Below are positions 17,328-36,306 of a stretch of DNA of 64,000 bases, one piece after another. This DNA comes from Flavobacteriales bacterium (GTDB lineage Bacteria; Bacteroidota; Bacteroidia; Flavobacteriales_D; CAJJDF01). How positions within the stretch are numbered: the stretch's first letter is position 1; every line of letters starts with the position of its first letter. A model generated the notes under the pieces. That model saw only the letters and a list, made by a program, of their open reading frames with translations. It was not told the origin of the DNA and searched no databases. Location: the NCBI GenBank assembly GCA_965655625.1, contig CBFHHA010000004.1:17710-81709 (forward strand), written 5' to 3'. Made by a program: the position numbers and the translations under genes.

Positions 17328-18008
17328 ATGAGCAAGTTGAATTCTCTTATTCCGGAAGATTGGCAGACGGTTTTGGCAGAAGAATTAGCCTCCGACCGAT
17401 TTGACCGCTTAACGAAATTTGTAACGAACGAATACTCGGAATCTATTTGCTTTCCTGCCAAAAAAAATATTTTTAGGGCATTAGAAAAGTGCCCCTGGGA
17501 CGATATCAAAGTGGTTATTTTGGGTCAAGATCCGTATCACGGGGAAGGCCAAGCTCAGGGGTTGAGTTTCTCTGTTCCGGCAGGGGCAAAATTCCCTCCC
17601 TCGCTCCGCAATATTTTCAAAGAATTGAGTTCAGACCTAGTCATTCAAGTTCCTTTTCAAGGAGATTTAACACCTTGGGCAAACCAAGGCGTGCTGCTGT
17701 TGAATGCCACACTTACAGTGCGCAAATCTGCGCCCGGAAGCCATCAAAAACAAGGATGGGAGGAATTTACTGATGGTATTATTCGATCTGTTTCGGAGAA
17801 GAAAAGTGGGGTTGTTTTTGTTTTGTGGGGAAAATTTGCTGAACAAAAAACAGCTCTTATTGATTCGGACAAACATTTAATTTTGACCTCTTCACATCCT
17901 TCTCCTTTCTCGGCTCACCGAGGTTTTTTGGGTTCTAAACCATTTAGCAAATCGAATGATTACCTGGTCTCGAAAGGAAAAAAGCCTATTGATTGGGACT
18001 TGGACTAA
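17328..18008 (+). CDS. ung: Uracil-DNA glycosylase
   Basis: GQDPYH, PPSLRNI, GVLLLN, HPSPFS. Confidence 0.97.
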   Translation: MSKLNSLIPEDWQTVLAEELASDRFDRLTKFVTNEYSESICFPAKKNIFRALEKCPWDDIKVVILGQDPYHGEGQAQGLSFSVPAGAKFPPSLRNIFKELSSDLVIQVPFQGDLTPWANQGVLLLNATLTVRKSAPGSHQKQGWEEFTDGIIRSVSEKKSGVVFVLWGKFAEQKTALIDSDKHLILTSSHPSPFSAHRGFLGSKPFSKSNDYLVSKGKKPIDWDLD

Positions 18009-18133
18009 AATTCGCTGATAAATCACCAAATTGATATAAAAAAAAGACCGTTTTGAGGTCGAGCCTAATGGAATATCAGAAGGGACAAAATTAGTAAGTA
18101 GAATTATTCTATTTTTATGCAAAATTGAACTAG

Positions 18134-19465
18134 TTGGAATACGCTATTGTAGACATAGAAACCACGGGAGGAACTCCCATAAATAGTAAGATAACCGAAA
18201 TAGCGATTATTATTACGGATGGAACCACGATTAAGGATTCGTACGAATCGCTCATAAACCCTGAGATTCCGATTCCGTATAACATCACTCGACTTACAGG
18301 GATAGACAACAGTATGGTGGCAGAGGCTCCACGATTTTTCGAAATTGCAAAAGAAATTTTATCGTTTTTGGAAGGAAGAATGTTTGTTGCTCACAATGTA
18401 AACTTCGATTATGGTCACATAAAGCGAGAGTTTAAAGAATTGGGCTACGATTTTGAAGCGGACAAATTGTGTACCGTAAGAATGTCGCGAAAAGTATTTC
18501 CTGGATTGCCCTCTTATAGTTTAGGAAAGCTTTGTAAATCGCTGGGGGTAACGCTAACAAGCCACCACAGAGCTATGGCTGACACAGCTGCTACCACCGA
18601 AATATTTCACCTGATTAAGGAACAAGATAAAAAAGCGGAGATCATTCAAGATTTTTCGATGAAGATTGGGATTGATAAACTACCTGGGAAACCGGGAGTA
18701 TATTACTTTAAAAATTATGAAGGGAAGATTATTTACATTGGCAAAAGCATCAACATAAAAAAAAGAGTGAAAAGTCACCTCAATAATTACCAGACAAAAA
18801 AAGGGCTGGCAATTATTGAAAATATTGATTCGGTAGATTTTGAAATCACGGGAAATGAAACACTCGCATTACTTTACGAAAATTTGGCGATAAAAACTCA
18901 CTTGCCAAAACACAATCGCAGACAGACGAAAACCAAGTTTCCGTTTGGAATAGTGGTGAACCGCCAAGGCAAATACCATTCGCTTGAGACAGTGAATGTT
19001 ACCAAAGACAAAAAAACGGTGATTGATTTTTCTTCGCGAAGAGAAGCGATGGAATTTATAAAAAAAACAATTGACCAATACGAACTTTGCCAAAAAATAA
19101 ACGGGCTTGAAAATCAAAATCGAGTAGGTTCTTGTTTTCGGTATCAACTGCATGATTGTCATGGAGCATGCATTGGAGAAGAAAGCCCAGAGGATTACAA
19201 CTTGCGCATAGAAAAATTTGAACAAAAGTACGGTTCGCCCAACGAAAGTGGAATTTTTGTGGCCAGGGGAAGAAAAACTTCTGAAAAAGGATTTGTTCTG
19301 TTGGAGAATGGCACGTTAACAGGTTTTGGATTTGTTTCTTCAAAAACTCCACTCAACTTTGGAACATTGAAACTCATGTCAGAGGTTTTTAATCCTGACA
19401 AGGATTACCAAGCTGTGATCAAAACTTTGTTCAGAAACGGGAATTTTGAAAAAGTGCAGGGTTAG
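18134..19465 (+). CDS. DEDDh 3'-5' exonuclease (PolIII epsilon-like) fused to GIY-YIG/UvrC-like nuclease
   Basis: DIETTG, AHNVNFD, HHRAMAD; PGVYYF...IYIGKSINIKKRV; C-terminal Cys cluster. Confidence 0.88.
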   Translation: MEYAIVDIETTGGTPINSKITEIAIIITDGTTIKDSYESLINPEIPIPYNITRLTGIDNSMVAEAPRFFEIAKEILSFLEGRMFVAHNVNFDYGHIKREFKELGYDFEADKLCTVRMSRKVFPGLPSYSLGKLCKSLGVTLTSHHRAMADTAATTEIFHLIKEQDKKAEIIQDFSMKIGIDKLPGKPGVYYFKNYEGKIIYIGKSINIKKRVKSHLNNYQTKKGLAIIENIDSVDFEITGNETLALLYENLAIKTHLPKHNRRQTKTKFPFGIVVNRQGKYHSLETVNVTKDKKTVIDFSSRREAMEFIKKTIDQYELCQKINGLENQNRVGSCFRYQLHDCHGACIGEESPEDYNLRIEKFEQKYGSPNESGIFVARGRKTSEKGFVLLENGTLTGFGFVSSKTPLNFGTLKLMSEVFNPDKDYQAVIKTLFRNGNFEKVQG

Positions 19466-19527
19466 TACTTTGGAACTGGACAAATGTTTTTTCTTGCTGA
19501 AAGACTTTTCTTTTGATAATCAATAAC

Positions 19528-20574
19528 TTATAGCTCCTCATTGAAATACACTTTGTAAAAGTGCATTTTCTTTTCATCATCGTATCCTCTTTCTACATTA
19601 TCTTTTACTGTATCTATTTCGTCCACATCAATTTTTATTTGAATTCGGGTATCCAGTAAAATTTCAGATTTTATCTTCTTCTTTTCTTTCTTGAGCGTTT
19701 GGGGCGAAATGGTAAAACTTTCTTCCAACTCCACTTGGTTTGCGAGTTTGTAATTCTCTTTATACTCGTCAAATTTATCTTTTATTTCGAACGGCTCAAG
19801 CAATTCTTCTTCTATTATTTCCTTGGTAATAAATAGGTTGTCATTAAAGACGCGAATCGTTTGATTCAAAAAGTCTTTTTGAGCATACGAATCATTTTCT
19901 TCCACCAAGTTGGATGAAAAATCTTTTATCAAATTTAAATAGTGCTTGGTTTGATAAGAATCATTCAACACCTCTTCCAGTCCCAAGAACGATTGTTTCC
20001 AATAGGCTGCATCGTATGAGTTATTGTCTACCGAAAACACTCTAAACCCTGAGTCTTTCTCGGTATTTAAAACCAGGCAACCTTTGTCAATTTTTTGGAG
20101 TCTCACTCCCTTTTCGATAATAAAATCTACTCCATCTGGGCGGTGATTGAAATTCAAATATTCTAGTTTTTTTTCAATTTTAAATATGCCAATTCCTGTC
20201 GTAATGATGTCTCCAAATTCAAGATCTTGAAATTCCACTACAAACAATTCTCCTGTTTTTATTTGAGGATGATTTGAATTCTCGTACAAATGATGCAAAA
20301 TAGAATTCGAGAAAGGAACAAATTCTTGTTTTCCAACAAAGTACTTTGCGCATAAGTCATACACAGTATTATATTCTAGCCCAATGTGATGACCAAATTT
20401 TTGTAGTTCCTGGCTTGCTCGTATCGAACTTACAAAAAGACCTTTGAGGGCTTTTTCTTCGCCTTCGGAAAGTTGCTGCTCTTGATGTGCAAGCACGTTA
20501 ATTTCTTCTCTCAATTTACTCCCTACTTTTTGTAGAGTTATTTTTTCGATAAAGGTTCTTTTGGTATTGAGCAT
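19528..20574 (-). CDS. Nucleoid-associated protein (NdpA/YejK-like)
   Basis: HPQIKTGELFV, KIDKGCLV, YWKQSFL, GYDDEKKMHFYKVYF as in the Bacteroidota family. Confidence 0.75.
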   Translation of the reverse strand: MLNTKRTFIEKITLQKVGSKLREEINVLAHQEQQLSEGEEKALKGLFVSSIRASQELQKFGHHIGLEYNTVYDLCAKYFVGKQEFVPFSNSILHHLYENSNHPQIKTGELFVVEFQDLEFGDIITTGIGIFKIEKKLEYLNFNHRPDGVDFIIEKGVRLQKIDKGCLVLNTEKDSGFRVFSVDNNSYDAAYWKQSFLGLEEVLNDSYQTKHYLNLIKDFSSNLVEENDSYAQKDFLNQTIRVFNDNLFITKEIIEEELLEPFEIKDKFDEYKENYKLANQVELEESFTISPQTLKKEKKKIKSEILLDTRIQIKIDVDEIDTVKDNVERGYDDEKKMHFYKVYFNEEL

Positions 20575-20715
20575 AATATTATTCTTGGAGTGCGAAGTTA
20601 AAAATAAATTCAGGACACATACAGCAGAACGCGTTCTTTATTAACACAAAAATCCTCCTGACAATTGGTCTCAAAGAGATTCTCGTCAAGAGGAAAAAAA
20701 ATTAGTTTGACGTAG

Positions 20716-21780
20716 TTATTTCTTAAAAATTCCGGCTTCTACCAGTACCTGAAAACTGTCTTCCATAGTTGTTTTTATGGGCCTAAATGACATTCCTAGC
20801 TCCGATTTTATTTTCGAATTATCTGCTTTCCAAGCTACATTCACGTTGTTTTTCACAAATTTTCTGGTCATTGATTTATTTACCATCGGTCCGATCAACG
20901 AGAGCAACCATTTGGGCAAGGCTTTCTTGGGAATTCCAAAATCGGCTCCGTACTTATCTTGTAAGGTTAGCGCCATTTCCAAAAAATCGGTATTGTGCCC
21001 CGAGGTGATGTACCTTCCTTTGGCTTCGGTTGTAAATCCTGCCAAATAATGAGCCTCCGCCACATCTCTCACATCTACAAACCCTACTCCCATTCTGGGT
21101 GCTCCGGCTTTCATGCTGCCATCACCCATTTGTTTTAGGATCGAAAAACTTTCTGAGGTAGTAAATGCTGGATTTAACATTGGGCCCAACACAAAAGAAG
21201 GATTAATCGTCACTAAATCAAATTGCTCCTGGGATTCGGTAATTTTCCAAGCTTTTTTCTCTGCCAAAGTTTTGGAATAGTAATAAGGCTGGTAGTGCAG
21301 CGAGGCTGTAGAATTCCATATTTCTTCGGTGAGAATGCCATTGGGAGCAGAAGCACATTCGGTAGCATCGGTGTATATTGCAGCGCAGCTACTTGTCACC
21401 ACCACTCTTTTTACCGAATCGGTCTTTTTAGCGGTTTCCAGCACATTGGCGGTTCCTTTTACTGCTGGGTCTATCAGTTCTTTTTGTGGATCTTTGAAGT
21501 CGCTTGTAAAAGGCGAGGCCGTATGGAACACAAGTTCGCAACCCGCCATTGCTTCTTGGTAGGATCCTTCTTGCAACAAATCCGATTTGAAATAGACAAT
21601 GCTACCAGGACTATTTTTCGCTAGTTCATTTAAGTGGGCAATTTTCTCCAATTTGTCTGGGTTTCTCACTGCGGCATGAACCGTAATTCCTTCTTCTAGT
21701 AATTTTTTTACGAGCCATCCGGCTACAAATCCTGTGGCTCCCGTAACTAATGCGGGTTTCGTTTTATCTATTTTGATCAT
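20716..21780 (-). CDS. NAD-dependent epimerase/dehydratase (dihydroflavonol-reductase-like SDR)
   Basis: TGATGFVA, HTASP, YYYSKTLAE, VDVRDVA. Confidence 0.9.
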   Translation of the reverse strand: MIKIDKTKPALVTGATGFVAGWLVKKLLEEGITVHAAVRNPDKLEKIAHLNELAKNSPGSIVYFKSDLLQEGSYQEAMAGCELVFHTASPFTSDFKDPQKELIDPAVKGTANVLETAKKTDSVKRVVVTSSCAAIYTDATECASAPNGILTEEIWNSTASLHYQPYYYSKTLAEKKAWKITESQEQFDLVTINPSFVLGPMLNPAFTTSESFSILKQMGDGSMKAGAPRMGVGFVDVRDVAEAHYLAGFTTEAKGRYITSGHNTDFLEMALTLQDKYGADFGIPKKALPKWLLSLIGPMVNKSMTRKFVKNNVNVAWKADNSKIKSELGMSFRPIKTTMEDSFQVLVEAGIFKK

Positions 21781-21900
21781 CGTTCTATATTTTGAACTAA
21801 AGGTCTTATTTATTTTCTACAATTGCTGATTTTCCGGAAAATTAACTCACAGATAAAGTATTTAGCTCGAAAACTATTGATTTTTTGAGAGATAACCCAT

Positions 21901-21930
21901 GCTGGCGCTCGTATGCAACGAGTGCCCACA
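21901..21930. repeat. REP-like palindrome at left edge of island
   Basis: GGCGCTCGT-atgca-ACGAGTGCC GC-rich hairpin in AT-rich context. Confidence 0.45.
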
Positions 21931-22603
21931 TTCTTTATTCGTTTGGAACGAATATAAATTTCAACTACTTCAACGGAATCATTTACAGCTTGTCCTAACT
22001 AATCAGTATTTAGCTTTTCATAACATGACTGAAGCAGCTTAGCTAATTCGGAGCTGGTTACCCAGAAATCATCAAGAGGTAGAAATAAGGTACAAAACCG
22101 ATCAATTTAGATGGTTTTTGCACAATTATTTTCGGTTGCCCTGTTTATTTTAGTTACTAAACTGTAACTCTTTTCTTTTCTAAAAAAACTTAATTCTCGA
22201 GATAAATTCGACTTGCAAAAATCGAATATTTACTAACTCACTTACTTCCCAATACAAAAAGTACATTGTATTGATTTACAGTGTTTTATACCTCTAAAAT
22301 ACAAATAAAAAACAAAAATTAAGGAATAAGAGAAGTAACAGAGAGAAAAGGCAATTCCGTTTTCATCTGACTCAGCAAAACAATCTTTTAGAATGATGTT
22401 TTTAAAGAATCATTGAAAATATCTGCTTTATTTTTTGGCTTTTAGACTTTGGAAGTATTGTAAATAAATTAATCCTTGAGTGACAACAGAGGAACTATGA
22501 AAAAAACCAAATACATTCGTTACCACTTTTCAAAAGATTCCCTGACACCATTTATTCTGCCAAAAACCTAAAAAATCTTAGCTATTTATCATTGACAAAA
22601 AAA

Positions 22604-23599
22604 TTACCAATACTTGTATTTTTCCGAAGAAATAATTTTTTCATCCCTATATTTTATTTCTTCTATTTTATTTCCCTTTGAATCATACTTGTATTTTATA
22701 GATTTATTTAATTCCCAGATTTCATCATACCAGCTTTCCTTTATCAAATTTCCATTTTTATCATAAGTTAGTGTTATTTCGATACCATAATTTCCACCCA
22801 CAAAAACTCTTACACTTTGAGAGCCCCTTGAATTATACTCAATTTCTGTTTCAGAAGTACCATCATGTTCATTTACTCTAATTGTTTTTGCTAAATTTCC
22901 ATGAGCATTGTAAAAATAAGTTTCAGAATCTATAGCCTCATCCTCATAGAATACAACAGATTCAATCAAATTTCCCAAAGTGTTATAGAGGTTTGTTGTT
23001 GTGCTTATTGTTCCATCCCAAAAGTAACTTATTTCTTCTATTACATTTCCTTTTGAATCATACTTGAATTTATTGGAAGACATAATTTTTTCATCCTCAT
23101 ATGTTATTTCCTCTGTTTTATTTCCCTTTGAATCATATTTGTATTTCCATGAATCAGAAACCTTTTCATCTCCTAACTCTATTTCTTCTTTTTCTATTAA
23201 TTTTCCCTCTGAATCATATTTAAAAAATATTGTGAATAAAACTTCTTCGCCTTCGCCATAAGAAGTTATTGATTCTAATTTGCCATCAAGAAGAGATAAA
23301 TATGATTTTTTTAAACTATTTGATTTTAAATTAAGTTCAGTAGATAATGATTTATTATATACCTTCAATGATTCAATTTCCTCATCTTTTGCGGAATTCT
23401 CTTTTTTTAAAGAGCTAATTTTAGACTCAAGATGTAACTTTGTTTCACTTAATTTTTCATTATCCTCAAGAGATCTTAGTAGGACTGAGCTAATACTATC
23501 TAGTTTGTATTCAAGTGTTTCTATTTGTTTTTTCTTACTTTGAGAAAAGGAGAAAGTTATACAAATAAGCAATAGAAGTAGAGTAATTATTTTTTTCAT
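22604..23599 (-). CDS. Secreted protein: shared SQSKKxQI coiled-coil N-terminus plus YD/RHS-like repeat C-terminus
   Basis: Signal peptide; N-terminus near-identical to 26628-27446; repeated KYDSKGN units. Confidence 0.75.
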   Translation of the reverse strand: MKKIITLLLLLICITFSFSQSKKKQIETLEYKLDSISSVLLRSLEDNEKLSETKLHLESKISSLKKENSAKDEEIESLKVYNKSLSTELNLKSNSLKKSYLSLLDGKLESITSYGEGEEVLFTIFFKYDSEGKLIEKEEIELGDEKVSDSWKYKYDSKGNKTEEITYEDEKIMSSNKFKYDSKGNVIEEISYFWDGTISTTTNLYNTLGNLIESVVFYEDEAIDSETYFYNAHGNLAKTIRVNEHDGTSETEIEYNSRGSQSVRVFVGGNYGIEITLTYDKNGNLIKESWYDEIWELNKSIKYKYDSKGNKIEEIKYRDEKIISSEKYKYW

Positions 23600-23790
23600 A
23601 ATCTAAATTTAAAAAAAATGAAGGTTAGTTTACGAAACTATAAAAAGTTACACAATAAAAAACAGTAAAGAATTTATTACAAATCACCTTGCAACTTTAA
23701 AGGCTAACAATGGGAGCAAAACCTTTGAACCATAATTGAATAGACTAAAATTATTAAAATATAAATTGCAAAATCAAAAAATAAGATGAA

Positions 23791-24706
23791 TCATTTTGAA
23801 ACTAATTCATGTGGGTATTTTGATTGAACAATTTCATATTTTATAAAACAAGAGAGATAACTTTCTATCACAATATAATTTGATGAAAGGCTTTTTAACT
23901 CAGTAATTAAATCTTTATCAAACATTTTATTATAAGTCTTTATAAATTCTAATGCTCTAATTTCAGATACTATTACACTATCAAGTAAATCTAAAATGTC
24001 AGATTTATTTTTATTTCCAAGAAAGCTCTTTTTTTATATTCCATAGATTCGTGCACAATTCTTAGAGTATATCGTTACTGATCTTATTTTATAGTCATTA
24101 GTTGTCATAACATTGACTTCCACTCTATTTCCATATTCATCCTCAAGGATAAATATCGTAACCAGTGGATAATCATGCCAGTATTCAAAATCAACTGTCC
24201 ACATTTTATGTAAAGTGGCATTAGATCCTACGTTGTCTTTAATTACTCCCTTAAGCTTCTTAACTATTTCAAGAGGGTCTTGAGATCTCGTTACATCAGT
24301 CATTGAACCTTCTAAGCATGAATTAATTGAAAGCTTTAGCTTAAAATCTTGATCAAAGAGGTCTGATAACTCAGTATCTGATGCAAACATAATATCTGAT
24401 ACGATATTATTAGACTTGGTAGTATCGATTTGAGCAAAAAGGCTACTAGATACAAAGATCGATAGTATAATTGCTGTTAATGACTTCATAATTTTCAATA
24501 TTAAGGATTACAAAAGGTAAAATTGAAAAAAATCCGCTACCGATGATAATTATAACATTTCTCTTATCAGCAGTCATTTCTGGGTAGCCAAAAACAATTA
24601 TTGTTGAAATTATTGTCACCGCAAGGATGGCAAGAAATGCATAACCTACATATTTTAAACTTTTACCCGCACTGTTAAATCTTTTTGTTAATTCTTCTTT
24701 TTGCAG
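23791..24706 (-). pseudogene. Disrupted copy of the 188-aa membrane protein gene at 27624-28190
   Basis: 23791-24035 matches 27624-27868 and 24507-24706 matches 27991-28190; ATG changed to CTG; middle replaced by unrelated ORF. Confidence 0.85.
24034..24489 (-). CDS. Hypothetical secreted protein inserted into the pseudogene
   Basis: MKSLTAIILSIFVSSSLFAQ signal peptide (Gln after cleavage, typical of Bacteroidota); alternative TTG start at 24498. Confidence 0.7.
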   Translation of the reverse strand: MKSLTAIILSIFVSSSLFAQIDTTKSNNIVSDIMFASDTELSDLFDQDFKLKLSINSCLEGSMTDVTRSQDPLEIVKKLKGVIKDNVGSNATLHKMWTVDFEYWHDYPLVTIFILEDEYGNRVEVNVMTTNDYKIRSVTIYSKNCARIYGI

Positions 24707-24850
24707 AAATACTAATTTTTGTAATTCTGAAAATCTATTTATCTAAATCGAACTAACAGAATCTTTTTCATATTGTCATTTAAAAATTTATGATATGAAG
24801 ATAAGATTGTTTTCATAACTTATAACAATTATTACAAAGGTGTTTTTATG

Positions 24851-24996
24851 AGTTCTGTCGCATTAGACTAAAGCCGACTGATTTTTGTCGTTTTTGATAA
24901 CAATTGAAAAATCTAAATCTTTGTTTGTGATTTAACTTTTGAACGAAGAGCAATTTTGGTAAAAAGTAGTTCTAAACTATTTAATACGACATAAAC
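24851..24996 (-). mobile_element. Degenerate MITE copy with IS6-like ends, inverted relative to 33949-34099
   Basis: Ends AGTTCTGTCGCATTAG and TTAATACGACATAAAC; internal GATTTTTGTCGTTTTTGA and GTGATTTAACTTTT align with the reverse complement of 33949-34099. Confidence 0.65.
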
Positions 24997-25033
24997 AAAA
25001 CGTAAACATATAATACTTAATGATTAGAGGAAC

Positions 25034-26062
25034 TCAATCCGGCAATTTAATTCCGATAAATTCAATGTTGTAATCAATCTCTCCCTCAATACCCCTTGAT
25101 TTATGCATTAATGCAACTACCGCATAATTATTTACATTATTTATAAAATGACCTGCATATTCAACACTACTCCATGAATCATAAAATTCATCATATTCTA
25201 AATTACCTCGATATTCTAACTTGATTGTATTTTCTGTTATTTTTGTTTTTAATTCGTAAGAATTACTTTTTGATTCAAGAATTATGTCTATTGATTTTTT
25301 TTCGTAGTTAATTGAGCGTTCTATAGTTTTTGAAGTGTTGTATTTTCCAAATCCAATTGGAATTATATTATAATTCTTTATGGTCTTAAAAACAGAATTA
25401 TAATAATCCTTATCGGTCCATAAAGCTCCTGCCTCCATATCCATTTCCTCTGCAGATGTACTTACTCGTTTTAAAGTTTGATTAGATTTTAAATCTATAA
25501 CCACTATATCCGAATTGCAACAACCACACATACCACCACAATAATCTATTTTATATGCAATATAGCCATTGTAATTCAATCCAATTGGGTATATAACAGG
25601 AGGGTTAAAACCATTACCATTAATGTATACATATTCAAAATCAAATTCAGTTTGAACCTCAAGAGGTTCTATATTTCCATCATCTCCATAGGAGAGATAA
25701 CTGGTTTGAACTTGTCTCGTCTTTAGTTTTTCTATACTATCTGATTTTAAAATTAAATCAGCAACTACTAATTGGTAGTCTTGCTCTAAAGACTTAACTT
25801 CTTTTATTAAAGATTCTATTTTCTCATTTTTCAAGCTTATCTCATCATTTTTAGAACCAATCTTACTGTTCAAAGAGCTAATTTTAGATTCAAGAGCTAT
25901 TTTATTTGAATTAAGTTCTCGATTATCATCAGTAGAGCTTAGTAGCACTGAATTAATACTATCTAACTTATATATAAGTATTTCTATTTGTTTTTTCTTA
26001 CTTTGAGAAAAGGAGATGCTTACACAAATAAACAATAAAGAGACAGTGATTAATTTCTTCAT
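25034..26062 (-). CDS. Secreted protein: shared SQSKKxQI coiled-coil N-terminus plus Cys-containing C-terminal domain of unknown function
   Basis: Signal peptide, same N-terminal block; CGGMCGCC motif in the C-terminal part. Confidence 0.75.
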   Translation of the reverse strand: MKKLITVSLLFICVSISFSQSKKKQIEILIYKLDSINSVLLSSTDDNRELNSNKIALESKISSLNSKIGSKNDEISLKNEKIESLIKEVKSLEQDYQLVVADLILKSDSIEKLKTRQVQTSYLSYGDDGNIEPLEVQTEFDFEYVYINGNGFNPPVIYPIGLNYNGYIAYKIDYCGGMCGCCNSDIVVIDLKSNQTLKRVSTSAEEMDMEAGALWTDKDYYNSVFKTIKNYNIIPIGFGKYNTSKTIERSINYEKKSIDIILESKSNSYELKTKITENTIKLEYRGNLEYDEFYDSWSSVEYAGHFINNVNNYAVVALMHKSRGIEGEIDYNIEFIGIKLPD

Positions 26063-26091
26063 AATCTAAATTTAAAAAAAAATTGAAGTTT

Positions 26092-26228
26092 AGTTTACGA
26101 AACCATAAAATATTTTTTATTTACCCAAAAAAAAGTAACTTATGCTGATTTACAGTTGTTTGTAAGTTTGAGGTATAAAAGACGTTCTATTAGCTAATAT
26201 TTCACCCTTTTTATGGTTTCCGTAAACT
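26092..26228. repeat. Inverted repeat pair upstream of 25034-26062
   Basis: AGTTTACGAAACCATAAAA (26092-26110) versus TTTTATGGTTTCCGTAAACT (26209-26228), one-base indel. Confidence 0.7.
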
Positions 26229-26305
26229 CCTACCATTTTTCTTTTTTTTGATTAGCATATCTATATTTCAAATAATTAAGTCTTACACTTCTTTATCGGG
26301 TTAAG

Positions 26306-26358
26306 AATGTATTAAAAATTAAATTTATTATCTTTAATGAAGTTAATGCGACAGAACC
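26306..26358 (+). mobile_element. Isolated IS6-like element end (type C)
   Basis: AATGTATTAAAAATTAAATTTATTATCTTTAAT..AGTTAATGCGACAGAACC, nearly identical to 31916-31968. Confidence 0.65.
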
Positions 26359-26479
26359 GAAACAATGATACAGATTGAAGAAGTTTTGTCTAATCAAAAG
26401 AAAAAATAAAATGGTTTATAAATCCTGAGCAAAACACTAAACAGATTTGCTAAAGGCTTACCGAGGGTCAACCTTTCTT

Positions 26480-26568
26480 CAAAAAGTTAAATAAACAAAC
26501 ATTTAGGTTTTTCAGTTTTTATCAAAAACGACAAAAATCAGTGGATTTTAGTTTAATGCGACAGAACC
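26480..26568 (+). mobile_element. Truncated MITE, right end (type B)
   Basis: CAAAAAGTTAAAT...CAAAAACGACAAAAATCA...TTTAGTTTAATGCGACAGAACC, as at 34004-34099. Confidence 0.65.
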
Positions 26569-26627
26569 AGAAAGTTTGCTTTTAATTGATTAATTGTATT
26601 TGATTTAAAATTTGTTTTTCTCATACT

Positions 26628-27446
26628 CTATTCAGAGCAACGTTGAATTTCACTTTCTATGTCTATTCCTATCCAAGATGGATCTGCTAGAAAGTCACAA
26701 CCCATTGGGCTTTGATATTGAAAAATTTTTACGAGCCTTTCTTCGTATGTTGGATTCCAGTTTTCCGGAAAACCTGTCTTTGACCCGAGGCTGAAATCCT
26801 TATCTAAATCTTTTTTAATGATCTTATCTGCTGCCTGTAGGCATTCGCATATTTTGTCATTGAATTTGACTACTCTTGATTTATGAATAAATCCGGTCGA
26901 AGAATCTGAGAATTTCACTTTTTTATGGTCTTTTTTCTCACCTATTATTTCAAACTTATCACCACTATATACTTGTCTTATAATAGTTCCGCCTGGTATT
27001 TCTCGTAAGTTAGAATAACCGTCTGGATCTTCAATGATGTAATATTCTGCCTTATTTTCTTTTTTAGTATTTTCAATAATTTCATGAAGTATATTAATGG
27101 AATCGTTTAAAAGCCTAATTACTGATTCTTTTTGATTGATTAACTCTTCATTTTTTGAAAGTTTCTCCAACTGATTTTGATTTTCCTCTCTGAGTTTATT
27201 TTGAAGTTCTTTTGAATTAAAATTTTCTTTTTTTAATGAATCATTCTCTTTTTTCAACAAGCTAATTTTAGACTCAAGGACTAATTTTGTATTGCTTAAT
27301 TTTTCATTATCATCAATAGACCTTAGTAATACTGAATTAACACTATCTAATTTAATAGTTAGTGTTTCTATTTGTTGTTTCTTGCTTTGAGAAAAGGAGA
27401 AAGTTATACAAATAAGCAATAGAAGTAGAGTAATTATTTTTTTCAT
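26628..27446 (-). CDS. Secreted protein: shared SQSKKxQI coiled-coil N-terminus plus SH3b-like domain
   Basis: Signal peptide; IEDPDGYSNLRE.PG...GFIHKSRV resembles bacterial SH3 domains. Confidence 0.75.
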   Translation of the reverse strand: MKKIITLLLLLICITFSFSQSKKQQIETLTIKLDSVNSVLLRSIDDNEKLSNTKLVLESKISLLKKENDSLKKENFNSKELQNKLREENQNQLEKLSKNEELINQKESVIRLLNDSINILHEIIENTKKENKAEYYIIEDPDGYSNLREIPGGTIIRQVYSGDKFEIIGEKKDHKKVKFSDSSTGFIHKSRVVKFNDKICECLQAADKIIKKDLDKDFSLGSKTGFPENWNPTYEERLVKIFQYQSPMGCDFLADPSWIGIDIESEIQRCSE

Positions 27447-27623
27447 AATCTAAATTTAAAAAAAATGAAGGTTAGTTTACAAAACTATAAAAAGTTACAC
27501 AATAAAAAACAGTAAAGAATTTATTACAAATCACCTTGCAACTTTAAAGGCTAACAATGGGAGCAAAACCTTTGAACCCTATTTGAATAAAATATAAATT
27601 GCAAAATCAAAAAATAAGATGAA

Positions 27624-28190
27624 TCATTTTGAAACTAATTCATGTGGGTATTTTAATTGAACAATTTCATATTTTATGAAACAAGAGAGATAACTTTCTA
27701 TCACAATATAATTTGATGAAAGGCTTTTTAACTCAGTAATTAAATCTTTATCAAACTTTTTGTTGTAAGTCTTTATAAATTCTAATGCTCTAATTTCAGA
27801 TACTATTAAACTATCAAGTAAATCTAAAATGTCAGATTTATTTTTATTTCCAAGAAAGCTCTTTTTTTGTGAACATATCAAATCGTTGAGTAAATCTGCA
27901 CTTTCGCTAATGGTTTCTGTTTTTTCTATTTGAAGATTTTTAATTCTTATTTTCATTAAGAATCCACCTGCTTCAATCAATTTAATGGCAATTACAAAAG
28001 GTAAAATTGAAAAAAATCCGCTACCGATGATAATTATAACATTTCTCTTATCAGTAGTCATTTCTGGGTAGCCAAAAACAATTATTGTTGAAATTATTGT
28101 CACCGCAAGGATGGCAAGAAATGCATAACCTGCATATTTTAAACTTTTACCCGCACTGTTAAATCTTTTTGTTAATTCTTCTTTTTGCAT
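27624..28190 (-). CDS. Hypothetical membrane protein (2 N-terminal TM segments)
   Basis: 188-aa ORF; intact counterpart of pseudogene 23791-24706. Confidence 0.7.
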   Translation of the reverse strand: MQKEELTKRFNSAGKSLKYAGYAFLAILAVTIISTIIVFGYPEMTTDKRNVIIIIGSGFFSILPFVIAIKLIEAGGFLMKIRIKNLQIEKTETISESADLLNDLICSQKKSFLGNKNKSDILDLLDSLIVSEIRALEFIKTYNKKFDKDLITELKSLSSNYIVIESYLSCFIKYEIVQLKYPHELVSK

Positions 28191-28320
28191 AAATACTAAT
28201 TTTTGTAATTCTGAAAATCATATTTCTAAACATTTAATTTACGAGAAATTCACGAAAACCAAAAGAAAATAGAAATTTTCGTCTAATTTAGAAGGCTAAT
28301 GATTTAAAATCATTTGGAAA

Positions 28321-28575
28321 ATGAGATTTAAAAGAAAATTAAAATATAAAAAGAAATTACTCATAATTTTATCCATCATTCTAGCTATAATTGCTATTGG
28401 CATAGTTGTCCTAGTAAGTCTAAATTTACTGCCTTTGTCGCTTATTTTCACATTCCCTCTTTTTGTGCTAATCATATACAAAATGGGTAAAGATGTTGAT
28501 GTCATAGTTGATAAGTTGTTACTGTCAGACGTTATGGAGTTTTTTGATGAAATGGAGGAAGAAGTTAAAGATTAA
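28321..28575 (+). CDS. Small membrane protein
   Basis: 84 aa, basic N-terminus, two hydrophobic stretches, acidic tail; followed by a degenerate paralog. Confidence 0.55.
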   Translation: MRFKRKLKYKKKLLIILSIILAIIAIGIVVLVSLNLLPLSLIFTFPLFVLIIYKMGKDVDVIVDKLLLSDVMEFFDEMEEEVKD

Positions 28576-28639
28576 GAAAAATGTAATCTATTTAGTACAA
28601 ACTAAACCACAATTAAACGAATTTAGAGAGGCAAATTAA

Positions 28640-28885
28640 TCTTCATAAAGCCAAAATCAAGAACGGATCCATACATACCTCTATCTATTATATTAGCTTT
28701 TATTGCAGGTATTATGGTTGTTCGGGTGATTTTGAATTTATTACCATTATCTTTTATTTTTATCTCCCAGTTAATTCTTTTAACCATATTCAGGACAGGC
28801 AAAAATGTGAACATAATTGTAACGAACGTAGGTTAAAAAAATTAATTTAATCATTTAATAAGATGGAAGAGAAGGTGATAGATTA
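28640..28885 (+). pseudogene. Degenerate tandem paralog of 28321-28575
   Basis: Plus strand reads LSIILAFIAGIMVVRVILNLLPLSFIFIS...GKNVNIIV* versus LSIILAIIAIGIVVLVSLNLLPLSLIFT...GKDVDVIV; no start, early stop. Confidence 0.6.
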
Positions 28886-29280
28886 AAATTAATAACACAA
28901 AATGATTAACCTGTTTCTTTCACTTTAATCAAGTAACAATATACGTTATCTACCTTCAATTTATTACCTGATTTTAAACTATTTTGAAGTGATTTAGATT
29001 CAAAAAAGCATTGCATATTTCAATACAAGGAACAACAGTTAAATCTACATCAGATAGAGGGCTATAATTTCTTAATCTAAAATTCGTAAAATTATCTTTT
29101 TGCCAACCAATTTCAGTTTTAGTTAAAACAACTTCTAACTTAAGATCATACCAATAGGCACCTTGCTTTATTATTTTAACACTGACTATAGAACTTAAGA
29201 AGTGATTTTTGTTAAATCTGAAATTAAAATGGAAAATTTTAAGTTTTAAATTATTATTGCTTTAAAAGTATAAAGGTCAT

Positions 29281-29538
29281 TTAAGGATTAAGTTTAGGAT
29301 AATGACTACATACATTTGATGGTTCAGTTAATACACAATGTGTTAAATACGGTAAATCATATATTTCACATATTTCAGATTCAATCATGAGATCAAAAAA
29401 TTCACCGAAAGTTTCGCATTCCTCAATTTCATAGCTAAACTCAGTTTCTACCTCTTTATCTCTGTAGCTAGTCACTATAGCTTCCAAATTAGTTATAAAC
29501 TGCTCATCGAGCGTTTTCATAATATTCTCAATATCCAT
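29281..29538 (-). CDS. Hypothetical acidic protein
   Basis: 85-aa ATG-initiated ORF, co-oriented with upstream cluster. Confidence 0.55.
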   Translation of the reverse strand: MDIENIMKTLDEQFITNLEAIVTSYRDKEVETEFSYEIEECETFGEFFDLMIESEICEIYDLPYLTHCVLTEPSNVCSHYPKLNP

Positions 29539-29604
29539 AATTACTTTAATTTTAATGATTAATACTGTAACAATCCGTTCTGATGCAAACTAACAACATT
29601 CAGG

Positions 29605-30090
29605 CTATAGAAGCCGTCTTAATATTGACTCCCAATCAGGATATTCGTTCCATTTTTCATTTTCATAGTCCCAACCAAAATGCAGATGAGTTCCTTTAAA
29701 ATTTTCAGCACCATTTGCAAGCCGGTCATCTATCAAAAATTCCCCAACGAGTTTATCTTTTCGATGAGATATAATAATTTTCTTTTTAAAAATTTCACCA
29801 AATTTTTCTTCAATCCATAATCGCTTGTCAATCCATGCAGAAGGATTTCCCCAAGGTGCAGTAGTTAAAACAAATAGATCGTACTTTTGACTTTCATACA
29901 ACTGAATTACTGATTCAACGGCTTTAGAAATTTCAGGTAATGTTCGGAAAACACCTTCAATTTCATCAGGTCTATTATGATACACTCCATCAATATTCTT
30001 AGGATGTAAAGCAGCCCCCTTAGCTAAATCAGCCAACACCCCATCCATATCTATATAAACAACTGGTCTTTTTTCCTTGTTCATTTCCAT
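29605..30090 (-). CDS. 5'(3')-deoxyribonucleotidase, NT5C/HAD family
   Basis: YIDMDGVLAD motif I, LTTAPW, KRLWIEE, LIDDR. Confidence 0.85.
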   Translation of the reverse strand: MEMNKEKRPVVYIDMDGVLADLAKGAALHPKNIDGVYHNRPDEIEGVFRTLPEISKAVESVIQLYESQKYDLFVLTTAPWGNPSAWIDKRLWIEEKFGEIFKKKIIISHRKDKLVGEFLIDDRLANGAENFKGTHLHFGWDYENEKWNEYPDWESILRRLL

Positions 30091-30112
30091 GTAAACTTGT
30101 TTTCTACTATTT

Positions 30113-31027
30113 TTAATTCAGGAAGAAAACCTCCACTCGTCTATTTTTCTTTTTATTTTCCTCTGTATCATTTGCAAAAATAGGCTCTGTATCACCTTTT
30201 CCAGAGTATTGAATCTGCTCTTGACTTATCCCATTAGCAAGTAAATAATCATAGATAGCTTTTGCCCTAGATATACTTAATGACATATTAAACGAACTCG
30301 AACCTTCTGAACTTGTATGCCCGGTAAGTATAGCCTTCCTATTTCTATTAGATTTAAAATAGTTTAAAATTCCTTGGAGGGCATCAACGGAACCTTTCGA
30401 AATATTGGCACTATTAAATTCAAATTGAACCGCATCTAGGCTATTCTTTAAATCACATAATTCATTAAACTCATTGAGTTTTTGTAGTTTAAATGGATTT
30501 GAATTATTAGGATAAAAAAACAGTTTAGCTGTGTCATTTATAACTACTCCTCGAAATACATCAAGCGAAGATGTGTTATTTTTTGTTGCTTTGTAAGAAA
30601 GATCAAAAACAGAATCATTTTTCCATGTTCTATTCGTTAATTTTATATCATACCCGAAATCCGAATTCAACAAAAAGTATTTGATCGTTTCTTCATCATA
30701 ACATTCTGGATAATAGATAAATTTAATAAGTTTATCAAACTGATGAGTAATAAACAAGGCTTTTATATATTCACCCAAGTTTGCTCCAAATGGATTCATC
30801 ACTGGATTAGACCAATTTGCCGATGGAACAGATGCTTCTTTAATTTCATCAATGCCATTTTGAGATTGATCATTCACCGTTGCAATTCTCAATTCGTCTG
30901 ACTCCAATAGTATTTCAGCTCTTTGCCGTTCAGAGCTACTTTTAGTTTCAATGTTACAATTTTGAATTAGAAAAACTAATCCAAATAATTGTATTACGAT
31001 TAAAGTGTATTTCTTATTTTTTTTCAT
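30113..31027 (-). CDS. OmpA-like peptidoglycan-binding domain protein (possible lipoprotein)
   Basis: C-terminal FEFNSA...GHTSSEGS..FNMSLSISRAKAI...G.G...P...NRRVE. Confidence 0.85.
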   Translation of the reverse strand: MKKNKKYTLIVIQLFGLVFLIQNCNIETKSSSERQRAEILLESDELRIATVNDQSQNGIDEIKEASVPSANWSNPVMNPFGANLGEYIKALFITHQFDKLIKFIYYPECYDEETIKYFLLNSDFGYDIKLTNRTWKNDSVFDLSYKATKNNTSSLDVFRGVVINDTAKLFFYPNNSNPFKLQKLNEFNELCDLKNSLDAVQFEFNSANISKGSVDALQGILNYFKSNRNRKAILTGHTSSEGSSSFNMSLSISRAKAIYDYLLANGISQEQIQYSGKGDTEPIFANDTEENKKKNRRVEVFFLN

Positions 31028-31661
31028 CCCTAATTATTAACTCCATAATATCTATAATTTTGTCAAACCTATGATCTGAATCATATTCAAACTTATTAAA
31101 TTGAATTGAATTGAGCTTTAAAAAAGTCATCATTTCTTCAAAACTTAATAATTTATCAGATCTTGATAGGTGAATATTGTATTTATTGTTTGAGGAACTG
31201 GCAAGATTAGAATCAATAAATAATTCAAATTCGATCAAATCCTCAATGTACTTTTCGTTAAAAAACCACTTTTCCTGGGTTTTATAATTAGCAAGTTCTG
31301 TGTTTGCGTATTTCTGGAGTGTTTTAGAAGGACTCCAACTTGGATTTATTGCGTGAACGGTTAAAAATTCCTCTTTGAATTTAGCTCTGAAATAATTAGC
31401 ATAAAAACCACCCAAGGAAGTCCCAACCAAGAAAACTTTTCTTCCTTTATTTCCTCTTATAAGTCGATTTATTTCTCGAATTGAATTTCTTGGACTTTGG
31501 TCTAGAGCCGGGGCAATAAGTTTAAATTTATCCGTCAATTGATTTTGATAGATGAACTCAGAAATTTGCTCTGCTTTTTTTCCTGGTCCTGAATTAAACC
31601 CGTGAAGTAAAATTATCACATTTGGAACTGACTTTATTATTAACGCTGGTCTTGGTGTCAT
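31014..31661 (-). CDS. YqiA/YcfP-family alpha/beta hydrolase (esterase)
   Basis: LHGFNSGP, GTSLGGFYA nucleophile elbow, INP, DHRF. Confidence 0.85.
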   Translation of the reverse strand: MTPRPALIIKSVPNVIILLHGFNSGPGKKAEQISEFIYQNQLTDKFKLIAPALDQSPRNSIREINRLIRGNKGRKVFLVGTSLGGFYANYFRAKFKEEFLTVHAINPSWSPSKTLQKYANTELANYKTQEKWFFNEKYIEDLIEFELFIDSNLASSSNNKYNIHLSRSDKLLSFEEMMTFLKLNSIQFNKFEYDSDHRFDKIIDIMELIIRDEKK

Positions 31662-31776
31662 AATTTATTTTACCTAAAATAAATAAAAATATTAACTATT
31701 CAAAATCAGTGATTAACCTTGCACTTTCAAGAATAATTAGCGGAAAACCAAAAAATCATAAACAATTGAATCAATA

Positions 31777-31968
31777 TGAGTTAACTTTTTAAACATTCAA
31801 GGAATTTGATGAAAAATCGTCGAAAAATAATTAATGCGACAGAACCTATGTTTTTCCGCTTTTGTCAAAAACGACAAAAATCATTAGGTTTTAGTTTAAT
31901 GCGACAGAACCTAACAATGTATTAAAAATTAAATTTATTATCTTTAATTGAGTTAATGCGACAGAACC
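31777..31968 (+). mobile_element. Three stacked IS6-like element ends (types A, B, C) in direct orientation
   Basis: TTAATGCGACAGAACC at 31831, 31896 and 31953, each preceded by a different inner sequence also found at other copies. Confidence 0.7.
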
Positions 31969-32033
31969 ATATTTCATCCATTTTGATAATCCAGAACTTG
32001 CACCTTTCAAATTGATTAAAGAATAAAAAATCT

Positions 32034-32918
32034 ATGAAAACAAAAATATTAATTATCGTATTTGCACTATTTAACCTTGCTTCCTATTCACAGGTTTCAA
32101 CGGTAACGAATGCAATCACTGGCAGAACTTGGATGGACAGAAATTTAGGTGCCAGTCAGGTAGCTACATCTATTACAGATTCAGCATCTTATGGCTCTCT
32201 CTATCAATGGGGAAGATTAACCGATGGACACGAACTTAGAAATTCAAGCACAACAACAATTGTATCAACATCAAACAACCCTGGTCATTCTGACTTTATT
32301 ATTGGCTCAGATGATTGGATTACACCGTCAAATGATTTGCTTTGGCAAGGAGTAAATGGAATAAACAACCCATGTCCAAATGGGTTCCGTTTGCCTACAG
32401 AAGCAGAATGGGAAGCAGAGCGATTAAGTTGGACTTCTAATGATGCAGCTGGTGCTTTTGCTTCCGTTTTAAAATTACCCATCGCTGGTGCAAGAAGCAG
32501 AATGACTGGCGCAATTGGAAACGTTGGGACTTTTGTAGGATATAGAAGTAGTGATCTGAATGGCGTAGAGTCACGAAATCTAGGAATTAGTTTGAGTATT
32601 GCTATGATGGCAAATAGAGCACGAGCAGATGGTAATTGTGTTCGATGCATACAAGATAATTCACTTGGAATCAATGATGCTTCTGTGTACAATGAACTTA
32701 AAATATATCCAAACCCTTCGAATGGTTTTTTTACGGTAGCCTCAGAAAAACAGCTTAGCAATATTGAATTTGAATTAATAGATTTATTTGGCAGAAAATT
32801 GAAAACAGGAACACTAAATGGATTGAATTCAGTCATCGATATTAATGACCTTCCAGATGGAATATACTTGTTGAGATTGGAAAATCTCACTCTTCAAAAA
32901 ATAATCAAGGGAAAATAA
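32034..32918 (+). CDS. FISUMP (Fibrobacter succinogenes major paralogous) domain protein with T9SS C-terminal domain
   Basis: WMDRNLGA, YGSLYQWGR, PCPNGFRLPTEAEW, G.CVRC; IYPNP...KIIK CTD. Confidence 0.82.
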   Translation: MKTKILIIVFALFNLASYSQVSTVTNAITGRTWMDRNLGASQVATSITDSASYGSLYQWGRLTDGHELRNSSTTTIVSTSNNPGHSDFIIGSDDWITPSNDLLWQGVNGINNPCPNGFRLPTEAEWEAERLSWTSNDAAGAFASVLKLPIAGARSRMTGAIGNVGTFVGYRSSDLNGVESRNLGISLSIAMMANRARADGNCVRCIQDNSLGINDASVYNELKIYPNPSNGFFTVASEKQLSNIEFELIDLFGRKLKTGTLNGLNSVIDINDLPDGIYLLRLENLTLQKIIKGK

Positions 32919-32921
32919 AAC

Positions 32922-33052
32922 TCATAACAAAATGTATAAATCATTGGGCAGAAAGTAATTAAATAAAAGTTGGATCATATAAATAAAGTAAGTGACAAAC
33001 CGAAAGTGCGCTGCTTTTAATCGCCCAACGATTCATACACAAACCGTTGTGG
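32922..33052 (+). repeat. attC-like cassette recombination site (long imperfect hairpin)
   Basis: TCATAAC..TGTATAAATCATTGGGC ... GCCCAACGATTCATACA..GTTGTGG, beginning 3 bp after a stop codon. Confidence 0.65.
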
Positions 33053-33084
33053 CTCATTCAATAGAAACTAGAGAATACAGAAAC

Positions 33085-33822
33085 ATGAAAAAAACAAACA
33101 AATTACTAATAACATTAATACTTGTTTTATTTTATAACACCTCTCTTTCTCAATGTAAATCCGATCTAGAACAACAGAATATCAAAGGAAAAGTTAAAAC
33201 TATTAAAGAAACAGGCATATATTCAAAAGGTGGTGCAAATGAAATTAATCATATTAAGACAACCAAATATGACAAGAGAGGCAAAGAACTTGGCTATAGT
33301 TTCGCATCAAAATATAATGATTTAAAACCTACTGACAGAATTTTTGAATTTGATAAAGAAGGAAATAAAATCAAAGAGAATAGATACGATTTGTCTGGTA
33401 AGATTAAAAATTATTTAAATTACGAATATGATTCACTGGGCAATGTAATTAAATGGAGTTACTTTACTTCAAGTGGTAGTTTGGATTCCTATACCACTTA
33501 TAAATATAATTTAACATGTGATAGAATTGAATCAAAGTATTATTATTCGGATAGTAGTATTTGGCTTTGGTATAAGAGTACATACAAAAAAGGAAGACTT
33601 ATTGAGGTTTTTAGCCCATTAGATTCTATTACTGTAAAATATTCATATGACAATCAAAATAACTACATTAAATATATAGAATATGACGAACTTGGTGAAG
33701 AGAAAGAAGTCAGAACTTATATTTATGAATATGATGACAAATCAAACTGGATAAAGAAGACGGAATTTCAAAGTGGAGAAATTTATTGGGTTGATGAAAG
33801 GCAATACGATTACTATGATTAA
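33085..33822 (+). CDS. Secreted YD/RHS-like repeat protein (cassette gene)
   Basis: Start moved to ATG 33085 (MKKTNKLL signal); KGKVKTIKE, YEYDSLGN, YEYDDKSNWIKK. Confidence 0.75.
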   Translation: MKKTNKLLITLILVLFYNTSLSQCKSDLEQQNIKGKVKTIKETGIYSKGGANEINHIKTTKYDKRGKELGYSFASKYNDLKPTDRIFEFDKEGNKIKENRYDLSGKIKNYLNYEYDSLGNVIKWSYFTSSGSLDSYTTYKYNLTCDRIESKYYYSDSSIWLWYKSTYKKGRLIEVFSPLDSITVKYSYDNQNNYIKYIEYDELGEEKEVRTYIYEYDDKSNWIKKTEFQSGEIYWVDERQYDYYD

Positions 33823-33843
33823 AAAATGCATTGTAATTTAACT

Positions 33844-33948
33844 AGCCATAACAATGTATATAAAATAGGCGAAACAGTATTATAAACAATAATTTGGGAT
33901 CGTATAAAACTTGGTAATTACATGAAAATTTGATGCTATGCCATCGCC
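33844..33948 (+). repeat. Second attC-like site, truncated by the MITE
   Basis: AGCCATAAC..TGTATATAAAATAGGCGA...TCGCC; right arm stops exactly at the TIR at 33949. Confidence 0.6.
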
Positions 33949-34099
33949 GGTTCTGTCGCATTAATTATTTTTCAAACGTATTTCAATAGAATTCTTGTTC
34001 CCACAAAAAGTTAAATCACTAATAAACATAACTTTGGAGTTTTAAATTTTTGTCAAAAACGACAAAAATCATTAGGTTTTAGTTTAATGCGACAGAACC
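33949..34099 (+). mobile_element. 151-bp MITE with perfect 16-bp terminal inverted repeats (IS6-like)
   Basis: GGTTCTGTCGCATTAA...TTAATGCGACAGAACC; resembles IS6-family ends (GGTTCTGTTGCAAA); no ORF, no target duplication. Confidence 0.75.
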
Positions 34100-34116
34100 C
34101 AACAAACTTGTATTAC

Positions 34117-34309: not shown

Positions 34310-34319
34310 TGCTTGTTTG

Positions 34320-36300: not shown

Positions 36301-36306
36301 TGATAG

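Follow-up and report, generated by a model that had tools for sequence, protein, structure and literature searches.

A Flavobacteriales family of predicted exported proteins with a constant N-terminal stalk and reassorted heads

Shufflons such as that of R64 pilV combine a constant N-terminus with exchangeable C-terminal binding domains, using inversion at one expression site and a site-specific recombinase. EnvC, PcsB/CwlO and CpoB consist of a Sec signal, a long coiled coil and a C-terminal head; each occurs in single copy as a fixed fusion and has a defined partner. For polymorphic toxins, part of PMC4287609 (see also PMC5562445) describes a similar N-terminal trafficking part, a variable C-terminus, hypervariable islands and C-terminal replacement by recombination. 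We analysed a 64,000-nucleotide stretch of a Flavobacteriales bacterium (contig CBFHHA010000004.1 of assembly GCA_965655625.1, forward-strand positions 17,710 to 81,709; below, the window), in which three genes, g1 to g3, join a common N-terminus to unlike C-terminal heads. An initial annotation had proposed a constant export and stalk module onto which variable tips are recombined, and the reassortment of heads and upstream contexts described below supports that proposal. Not covered by the annotation were the IS6-type ends, a segmental duplication, four more copies elsewhere in the genome and the glycosylation sequons. The family is well supported as a shuffled one; it is new as a module and known as a kind of architecture.

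The likeness to polymorphic toxins (MafB, SitA, CdiA, Rhs) lies in the variable C-termini (34 clusters in 110 proteins, drawn from the best 120 of 240 census matches and the genome's own copies), in AT-rich islands that here hold ends of IS6-type insertion sequences (ISs), and in a patchy distribution. The family differs from them in that no immunity gene follows and most genes are followed by an IS6 end, that headless cassettes are lacking and every copy is a full gene that has a leader of its own, and that the named heads are of binding type. A toxin system like MafB or SitA, with the constant N-terminus serving trafficking and the variable C-terminus being toxic, would share the layout, the hypervariable islands and the recombinational reshuffling described in part of PMC4287609, and the 40 of 54 scanned proteins without a Pfam family leave room for an unknown toxin. 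However, a co-oriented open reading frame (ORF) lies within 150 bp downstream of just 4 of 19 genes, two of these four ORFs being module genes and the others encoding 212 and 414 amino acids; different DNA follows identical heads, no nuclease, deaminase or pore-forming family is among the named heads, and headless cassettes were not seen in the loci inspected. Membership in such a system is very unlikely, and the toxin analogy of the initial annotation does not extend that far: because the test for immunity genes failed and no toxin family was found among the heads scanned, we do not file the family as a polymorphic toxin system.

With EnvC, PcsB/CwlO and CpoB the family shares the layout of signal, coil and head, and one member (P0082) carries the automatic label "CwlO-like"; its heads are interchangeable, however, and none of the models of those families scores above cut-off. 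Unlike a shufflon, it comprises many complete genes in direct repeat, with crossovers spread over ~370 bp and no single site, and we found no recombinase-like ORF within 18000-37000 of the window. A diversity-generating retroelement was rejected, as PF00078 gave 0 matches in the window's genome (G000, 99.5% complete) and the control was positive in 3 of 14 genomes. The likeness to IS6/IS26 arrays and translocatable units extends to GG-tipped repeats that carry cTGT, one such end being joined to an IS6 transposase, to passengers between ends and to the lack of target duplications at 11 of 11 full miniature inverted-repeat transposable elements (MITEs), but the elements here are for the most part lone ends and non-autonomous 150-bp MITEs whose orientation is mixed, and the passengers encode exported proteins. 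Substrates of Bacteroidota O-glycosylation, as described in part of PMC12871550, are likewise exported and carry D-S/T-hydrophobic sequons; the stalk differs in a sequon density about three times that of the genome's exported proteins and in having one invariant site. A literature search, with subscription journals and supplements outside its scope, found nothing on constant-N/variable-C coil proteins of Flavobacteriales or on hypervariable islands of Crocinitomicaceae; general papers on IS6, MITEs and passenger genes exist.

The shared module and its heads

The three genes lie at the positions given by the initial annotation, are co-oriented on the minus strand, and each begins within a copy of the module DNA:

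g1: 22604..23599, minus strand; 331 aa, shared module and YD/RHS-repeat head; a single D-S-I sequon, at residue 34
g2: 25034..26062, minus strand; 342 aa, shared module and unnamed beta-rich head with CGGMCGCC; predicted continuous helix at mature residues 2-95; two sequons, at residues 34 and 108
g3: 26628..27446, minus strand; 272 aa, shared module and a head of SH3b domain plus four-Cys helical region; sequons at residues 34, 69 and 115
Module DNA copy 1: 23376..23645, minus strand; leader, signal peptide and first part of the coil, repeat families D1 and D6
Module DNA copy 2: 25839..26110, minus strand; identity to metagenome contig L057 decays within this copy
Module DNA copy 3: 27223..27492, minus strand; identity to metagenome contigs L057 and L058 begins at g3 nucleotide +47

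Over the first 70 amino acids, g1 and g2 are 66% identical, g1 and g3 83%, and g2 and g3 63%. The DNA holds a 243-nt repeat in three copies (23376-23618, 25839-26081 and 27223-27465; 77-84% identity to the reference copy), and the common upstream leader that had been reported is present at all three genes (repeat families D6 and D7). A tblastn search of the whole genome returned seven module copies with E values of 1e-16 or lower, the next match having an E value of 0.003, and the sharing of the module is far beyond chance.

As had been proposed, the proteins diverge in or after the coil into unrelated heads. No mutual alignment extends past about residue 134. The coil shared by g1 and g2 reaches further, as far as an LKS[DN]S motif at about residues 95-110. 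By alignment, clustering and structure models, the heads proved unrelated. The YD-like head of g1 matches RHS_repeat with 36.8 bits (cut-off 22) and TIGR01643 with 39.3 bits (cut-off 15.8). For the SH3b-like head of g3, SH3_3 reaches 20.9 bits, under the cut-off of 27, though all five Foldseek matches of the model at E ≤ 0.001 are SH3-containing peptidase or endolysin chains; in the structure model, the SH3b domain is followed by a helical four-Cys region. The g2 head with its CGGMCGCC stretch matches no family in Pfam and NCBIfam scans. Its model (pLDDT, the predicted local distance difference test, 66; built from 6 sequences) is beta-rich, and Foldseek gives nothing clear for the fold, with a best TM score of 0.12-0.22; a wide structure search gave a best Z of 7.7 that was driven by the helix and barely probed the head itself. 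The Atlas lead for this head is DUF2259 (score 0.91, 71% of members), which Pfam did not confirm; the best Atlas score for the module, 0.80, is uninformative.

The genome (2.38 Mb) carries its seven module copies on four contigs, four of them beyond the window's three; six are complete genes with six different heads, and the seventh is cut by a MITE after codon 48. A further leader copy reaches the end of a contig (C45:17863-17922), and an eighth gene may be unassembled. In a wider census, a module profile scored 7,991 candidates, of which 240 passed and the best 120 were analysed. Together with the seven genomic copies these make 127 proteins, some of them duplicates, and the motif is found in 125. 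In this set, the 110 proteins with at least 40 residues past the stalk fall into at least 34 head clusters. By module clade, A has 13 head types, B 12 and C 6, while 8 are found on the 19 proteins outside these clades; two or more head types, SH3b included, are shared by two module clades. The module tree behind these clades was built by a quick method from 61 columns, is mostly unresolved and served only to show clades. A Pfam-type scan of 54 module proteins found FISUMP in 7 and FGE-sulfatase-like, F5/8-type, LRR and TonB_C domains in one each; the remaining matches were three of coil type, and 40 of the 54 had no Pfam family. The module itself matches no Pfam or NCBIfam model above cut-off.

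We found the module in 33 of 401 Flavobacteriales genomes, and in 35 after one iteration, in five families and with 1-7 copies; 400 other genomes sampled across the phylum yielded none. As the scoring took in no more than 17 candidates from each genome, these counts are lower bounds. Genus matches in G007 and G009 (E 4e-4) were unrelated signal peptides and were dropped. The two best-matching public runs for the window are marine metagenomes; the RNA data consist of one run with 7% of the words and five short, low-depth contigs, and a sigma-70 scan gave 33 matches against 38.5 by chance, with a consensus that does not cover Bacteroidota promoters. Two loci stand somewhat apart. In another lineage, a tightly packed operon without IS6 ends (L023:82-4643) contains two module pairs, one pair keeping its head and the other sharing the stalk with a FISUMP head on one copy. 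A divergent module-like N-terminus (L100:1459-3099), its sequon lost, opens a frame of more than 800 aa that may encode a penicillin acylase-like protein.

Reassortment of heads and upstream contexts

A DNA pattern scan of metagenomes yielded 23 stretches (L-numbered contigs), and comparison of these with the window shows that heads and upstream contexts are reassorted between loci and strains. Contig L057 matches the window at 99.2% over 1,373 bp, from g3 +47 to g2 +35, yet the gene upstream of this block is another one, and the block leads into a YD head in place of the window's CGGMC head; L058 shows the same left junction. Contig L056 has the upstream DNA and first 205 nt of g3 (97%), followed by a YD head and the downstream DNA of g1, and thus corresponds to the window array minus the 3.85 kb that separate the g3 repeat from the g1 repeat, though its YD head is only 82% identical to that of g1. 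Upstream contexts number 19 among the 30 genes with enough flank. Of the 7 contexts shared between genes, 3 bear at least two heads, and 7 of 9 heads sit in at least two contexts, one of them in up to four. The fusions are thus not fixed, and neither of the two outcomes that the initial annotation had named as refuting its proposal was observed.

All sources being metagenome assemblies, the swaps could be artefacts of assembling repeats, and contigs from public runs indeed break at module copies, none spanning the array. Yet the longest exact repeat between the genome's copies is 97 bp, and 18 of the 20 other pairs share at most 54 bp; the second signal peptide of L057 is a haplotype of its own and not a join of g1 and g2, the identical swapped junction occurs in L057 and L058, and mis-joins cannot yield 34 head types with intact frames. 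We regard this explanation as extremely unlikely. Contig joints in the public runs, from 23391 to 27242 (three runs) and from 25852 to 27242 (one), fit deletion forms, but their sides are only 27-37 bases long and could come from paralogues, and they were excluded from the counts. The near-perfect run X1 may be the source of the window and was not treated as independent.

Exchange over the repeated module is very probably the genetic mechanism. The edges of the high-identity blocks lie at -65, -50, +26, +47, +82 to +90, +204, +231, +273 and +305, and this spread points to homologous recombination on a shared arm and not to a site-specific reaction. Crossovers anywhere in this arm of ~370 bp (-65 to +305) would insert, delete or replace DNA between copies, presumably by RecA-type exchange over the module, aided in this lineage by IS6-derived ends downstream. 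Site-specific recombination at the SFSQSKK-coding stretch was considered and rejected, as the boundaries are scattered and the codons vary synonymously across genomes. Many head junctions come after an LKSDS-like motif, and no DNA site was found at these junctions. Separately from the exchange of heads, clade A stalks (P0023, P0035, P0007 and others) change in length by units of 14 residues (42 bp), in up to 4 tandem copies.

The other boundary of the exchanged units is likely supplied by IS6-derived ends, which in this lineage would move units between loci. In the window, such ends flank g2 and g3:

24851..24940, plus strand: IS6-type terminal repeat and a partial 150-bp MITE, downstream of g2 at a distance of 168 bp
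26482..26568, minus strand: IS6-type terminal repeat and a partial MITE, downstream of g3 at a distance of 59 bp and inverted relative to the 24851 copy; family I1
26301..26358, minus strand: second IS6-type end, of the 58-bp type, 281 bp upstream of g2

The 15-bp end occurs about 50 times in the genome, clustered in islands, both as lone ends and in 150-bp MITEs. The same terminal repeat precedes an IS6 transposase in the genus-mate G001 (NF033587, 175 bits, cut-off 125), and a PF13610 remnant adjoins an end on contig C26 of G000. The form of the end fits the IS6 consensus as given in part of PMC7986276, a GG-tipped short terminal repeat with a cTGT motif. An end lies within 200 bp downstream of 17 of the 23 complete clade A genes, covering 6 of 9 head types, as against 15 of 1,673 ORFs of the genome and 15 of 67 ORFs located within 3 kb of an end. 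MITEs interrupt several module copies, after codons 48, 33 and 68. None of the 11 full MITEs in the genome has an 8-bp target duplication, whose loss by later rearrangement is possible; the signal of split duplications is weak, as 97 flanks gave 3 pairs of which two are self-palindromes (shuffle P 0.05), and one split 8-mer pair is seen across contigs.

A side observation concerns the ends themselves. In 5 of the 24 end groups with a common outer flank, the inner sequence on the other side of the 15-bp end varies (examples at G000 C38:21621-21771, L061, L064, L069 and L013), including a MITE inverted in place. The targeted reaction of IS26 requires extended identity, according to part of PMC7885326, whereas the exchange here falls inside the 15-bp end, between unlike inner sequences.

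The stalk, its sequons and the envelope

In AlphaFold models, the stalk forms one helix of mature residues 2-95 in g2 (94 residues) and two in g3, of residues 2-55 and 60-109 (~108 residues), and the hydrophobic period is 3.46-3.56 in 6 of 6 stalks. By eye, the signal peptide ends at SFS-Q, and a Gln at the new N-terminus after signal cleavage is typical of Bacteroidota. The absence of a lipobox and of a sorting domain of the type IX secretion system (T9SS) noted in the initial annotation held up. The candidate lipobox Cys13 follows Ile and gives way to Ser or Phe in other alleles (by eye), and lipoprotein identity was rejected for want of a conserved cysteine at the signal end. A T9SS sorting domain is absent from g1 to g3, the control gene at 32034-32918 scoring for one, and a T9SS cargo adhesin was likewise rejected, with no Por_Secre_tail or other sorting domain in any module protein scanned.

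Across 23 alleles, the ratio of nonsynonymous to synonymous substitution rates (dN/dS) is 0.52 in the signal peptide, 0.26 in residues 20-45 and 0.36 in residues 46-68, and conserved module residues show synonymous codon variation across genomes; judged by sequence, the module is conserved at the protein level. In 33 of 33 rows, drawn from many genomes and chosen by a profile of the same motif, Q, I, D and S are invariant and K, K, Q and L almost invariant. The invariant D and S belong to a candidate glycosylation site. In the part of PMC12871550 that treats it, the O-glycosylation sequon of Bacteroidota is D-S/T-A/I/L/V/M/T in exported proteins. Such a sequon is present 14 residues after the Gln (Q+14) in 39 of 39 representatives, at a site fixed by the search profile, and we therefore counted sequons outside the part covered by the profile hidden Markov model. 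There, D[ST][AILVMT] was observed 73 times in the 39 representatives against 10.2 expected, a ~7-fold enrichment that is seen in each of four clades. Control motifs in the same stalks gave 15 against 14.0 (E[ST]h) and 2 against 10.4 ([ST]Dh), and the heads carried 19 sequons against 15.4 expected. Per 100 aa, the stalk has ~2.7-2.9 sequons and the other exported proteins and coils of the genome 0.8-0.9, roughly a threefold difference.

These patterns bear on a simpler explanation, namely that the module is a mere portable expression and export cassette of leader, signal and inert linker, spread by duplication and IS6 and capturing incoming genes, with many of the fusions neutral. The copies do sit in AT-rich islands full of IS6 remnants, several are cut by MITEs as noted, a foreign ORF has likewise replaced the middle of an unrelated neighbouring gene, and the distribution is patchy, with 3 of 15 genomes of the bacterial family. 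A neutral cassette is nevertheless hard to reconcile with purifying selection on the mature N-terminus, stronger than on the signal peptide (0.26 vs 0.52), with invariant residues encoded by divergent codons, albeit in profile-selected rows, or with sequons enriched along the whole stalk in four clades, and we consider it unlikely.

The homologues of the heads provide a further clue. Among 21 homologues of the g3 head viewed full-length by eye, a lipoprotein-type signal stands at the start of 15, and the other 6 begin with the module or a near relative of it; proteins with the g2 head have the module in all six cases. As the SH3b head is also found behind lipoprotein signals, the module likely acts as an envelope tether. 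A pattern search of G000 for the lipoprotein leader of the SH3b homologues found none. A second family with a shared leader came to light beside these homologues, with lipoprotein signals ending in LTSC or similar and an SH3b head with variable inserts (P0126, P0128-P0131, P0133-P0137, P0139-P0143; a similar leader is present on neighbours in L078 and L086). Of 18 proteins compared with anti-phage families, 17 had no PADLOC match and one had two matches of coil type; these families were rejected.

Taken together, the stalk probably has an envelope role. The proteins are predicted to be exported by Sec, cleaved between SFS and Q, to form a parallel coiled coil of 8-16 nm and to be glycosylated at the D-S-hydrophobic sites. 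The stalk would replace the lipid anchor that the same heads have elsewhere; it would oligomerise and hold the head in place, either in the periplasm or at the periplasmic face of a membrane. In the weakest step, the heads may be a strain-variable set binding peptidoglycan, glycan or protein ligands, some of them diversifying under envelope conflict. The dN/dS of heads is 0.76-1.56 in four and 0.23-0.44 in three, with 2-4 alleles each. The combined statement, a shuffled-head family of Flavobacteriales whose O-glycosylated envelope stalk holds a binding head, is the one that we favour by a modest degree. One of the fast-diversifying head types (L021, L054, L066, L067; P0003, P0039, P0040, P0052) is nearly invariant save for two hypervariable aromatic patches, which assort independently.

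Several observations weigh against the combined statement. Sequons are also enriched in other exported proteins of the genome (143 against 56.9) and in ten other exported coils (6 against 1.8), so part of the stalk signal is phylum-wide background, and g1 retains one sequon only. No membrane anchor is left after signal cleavage and, in the loci inspected, no conserved partner or translocator gene that might dock the tether lies beside the family. Values of dN/dS near or above 1 are restricted to some heads with few alleles. On the genetic side, the metagenome loci are not mutually independent, g1 with its YD head has no downstream end, and homologous recombination gives no account of the first joining of new heads to the stalk. 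IS6 ends are absent from all 29 non-clade-A loci inspected, and thus IS6 cannot explain the family at large, being a lineage-specific vehicle and not the family's origin.

Instead of a tether, the glycosylated helix might be a routing tag that takes the proteins across the outer membrane or into vesicles by a route that is neither T9SS nor lipoprotein, the heads being polymorphic surface adhesins or receptors. This would suit the fold types known for surface binding in the Pfam-type scan (FISUMP 7, FGE-sulfatase-like 1, F5/8-type 1, LRR 1), the FISUMP-like domain that is encoded with a T9SS sorting domain at 32034-32918, the occurrence of the SH3b head as a lipoprotein, and the independently assorting aromatic patches; but no conserved translocator gene lies beside the family, the TonB_C and SH3b heads suit the periplasm, and a sorting signal is not recognisable. 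Such routing is quite unlikely in our view, and the envelope stalk with a binding head remains the preferred reading.

The surrounding island and what the family means

The genes g1 to g3 lie in an AT-rich island with 25-30% GC against 36%. Within it, g1 and its upstream DNA copy the g3 locus in a segmental duplication with two blocks, 23396-24035 against 27243-27868 (92%) and 24507-24747 against 27991-28230 (97.5%). The features of the duplication are:

27624..28190, minus strand: gene for 188 aa, located upstream of g3; the N-terminal part has hydrophobic segments, and no family scores above cut-off
23396..24747, minus strand: second version of the 188-aa gene with the leader and the start of the module, at 92-97.5% identity to 27243-28230; its middle has been replaced
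24034..24498, minus strand: 154-aa ORF with a signal-peptide-like start, in place of ~110 bp of the duplicated 188-aa gene

The insertion of the 154-aa ORF (24034-24498 within 23790-24706) has clean junctions without a repeat or an IS end. At the right edge of the island, tRNA-Arg(TCT) (34319-34393) adjoins a full 150-bp MITE (33949-34099), and this edge is likely an integration hotspot. The segment 32025-33949 holds two genes flanked by IS6 ends, one for a FISUMP-like protein that has a T9SS sorting domain, the other for a free-standing RHS-repeat protein; both are 98% identical in the genus-mate G001, where they lie at two separate places, against 66-79% for the backbone, a match that by sequence comparison reflects recent exchange of end-bounded units. 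The motif TATAGTGT(C/A)ACTTTTT, with a near-palindromic core, occurs once or twice 42-116 bp upstream of most clade A copies (in the window, for example, at 27489-27504) and at a few other island sites, and is possibly a regulator site.

An unnamed, order-restricted module thus organises a large share of the "hypothetical" island proteins in uncultured aquatic Flavobacteriales, and the shuffling of variable C-termini behind a constant N-terminus is shown outside toxin systems. The function of Bacteroidota O-glycosylation is called unclear in part of PMC12871550, and the stalk would allow a clean test of what it is for because one sequon is invariant and mutable. A bolder and rather doubtful idea is that the QSKKxQIxxLxxxxDS helix serves Flavobacteriales as a so far unrecognised tag that targets or anchors proteins and depends on glycosylation, in addition to the two known options of lipidation and the T9SS sorting domain. 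Its gene would double as the recombination arm with which populations keep a shared, mobile library of dozens of binding heads for surface display. If the module were such a targeting tag, the phylum would have an extra route of envelope protein sorting.

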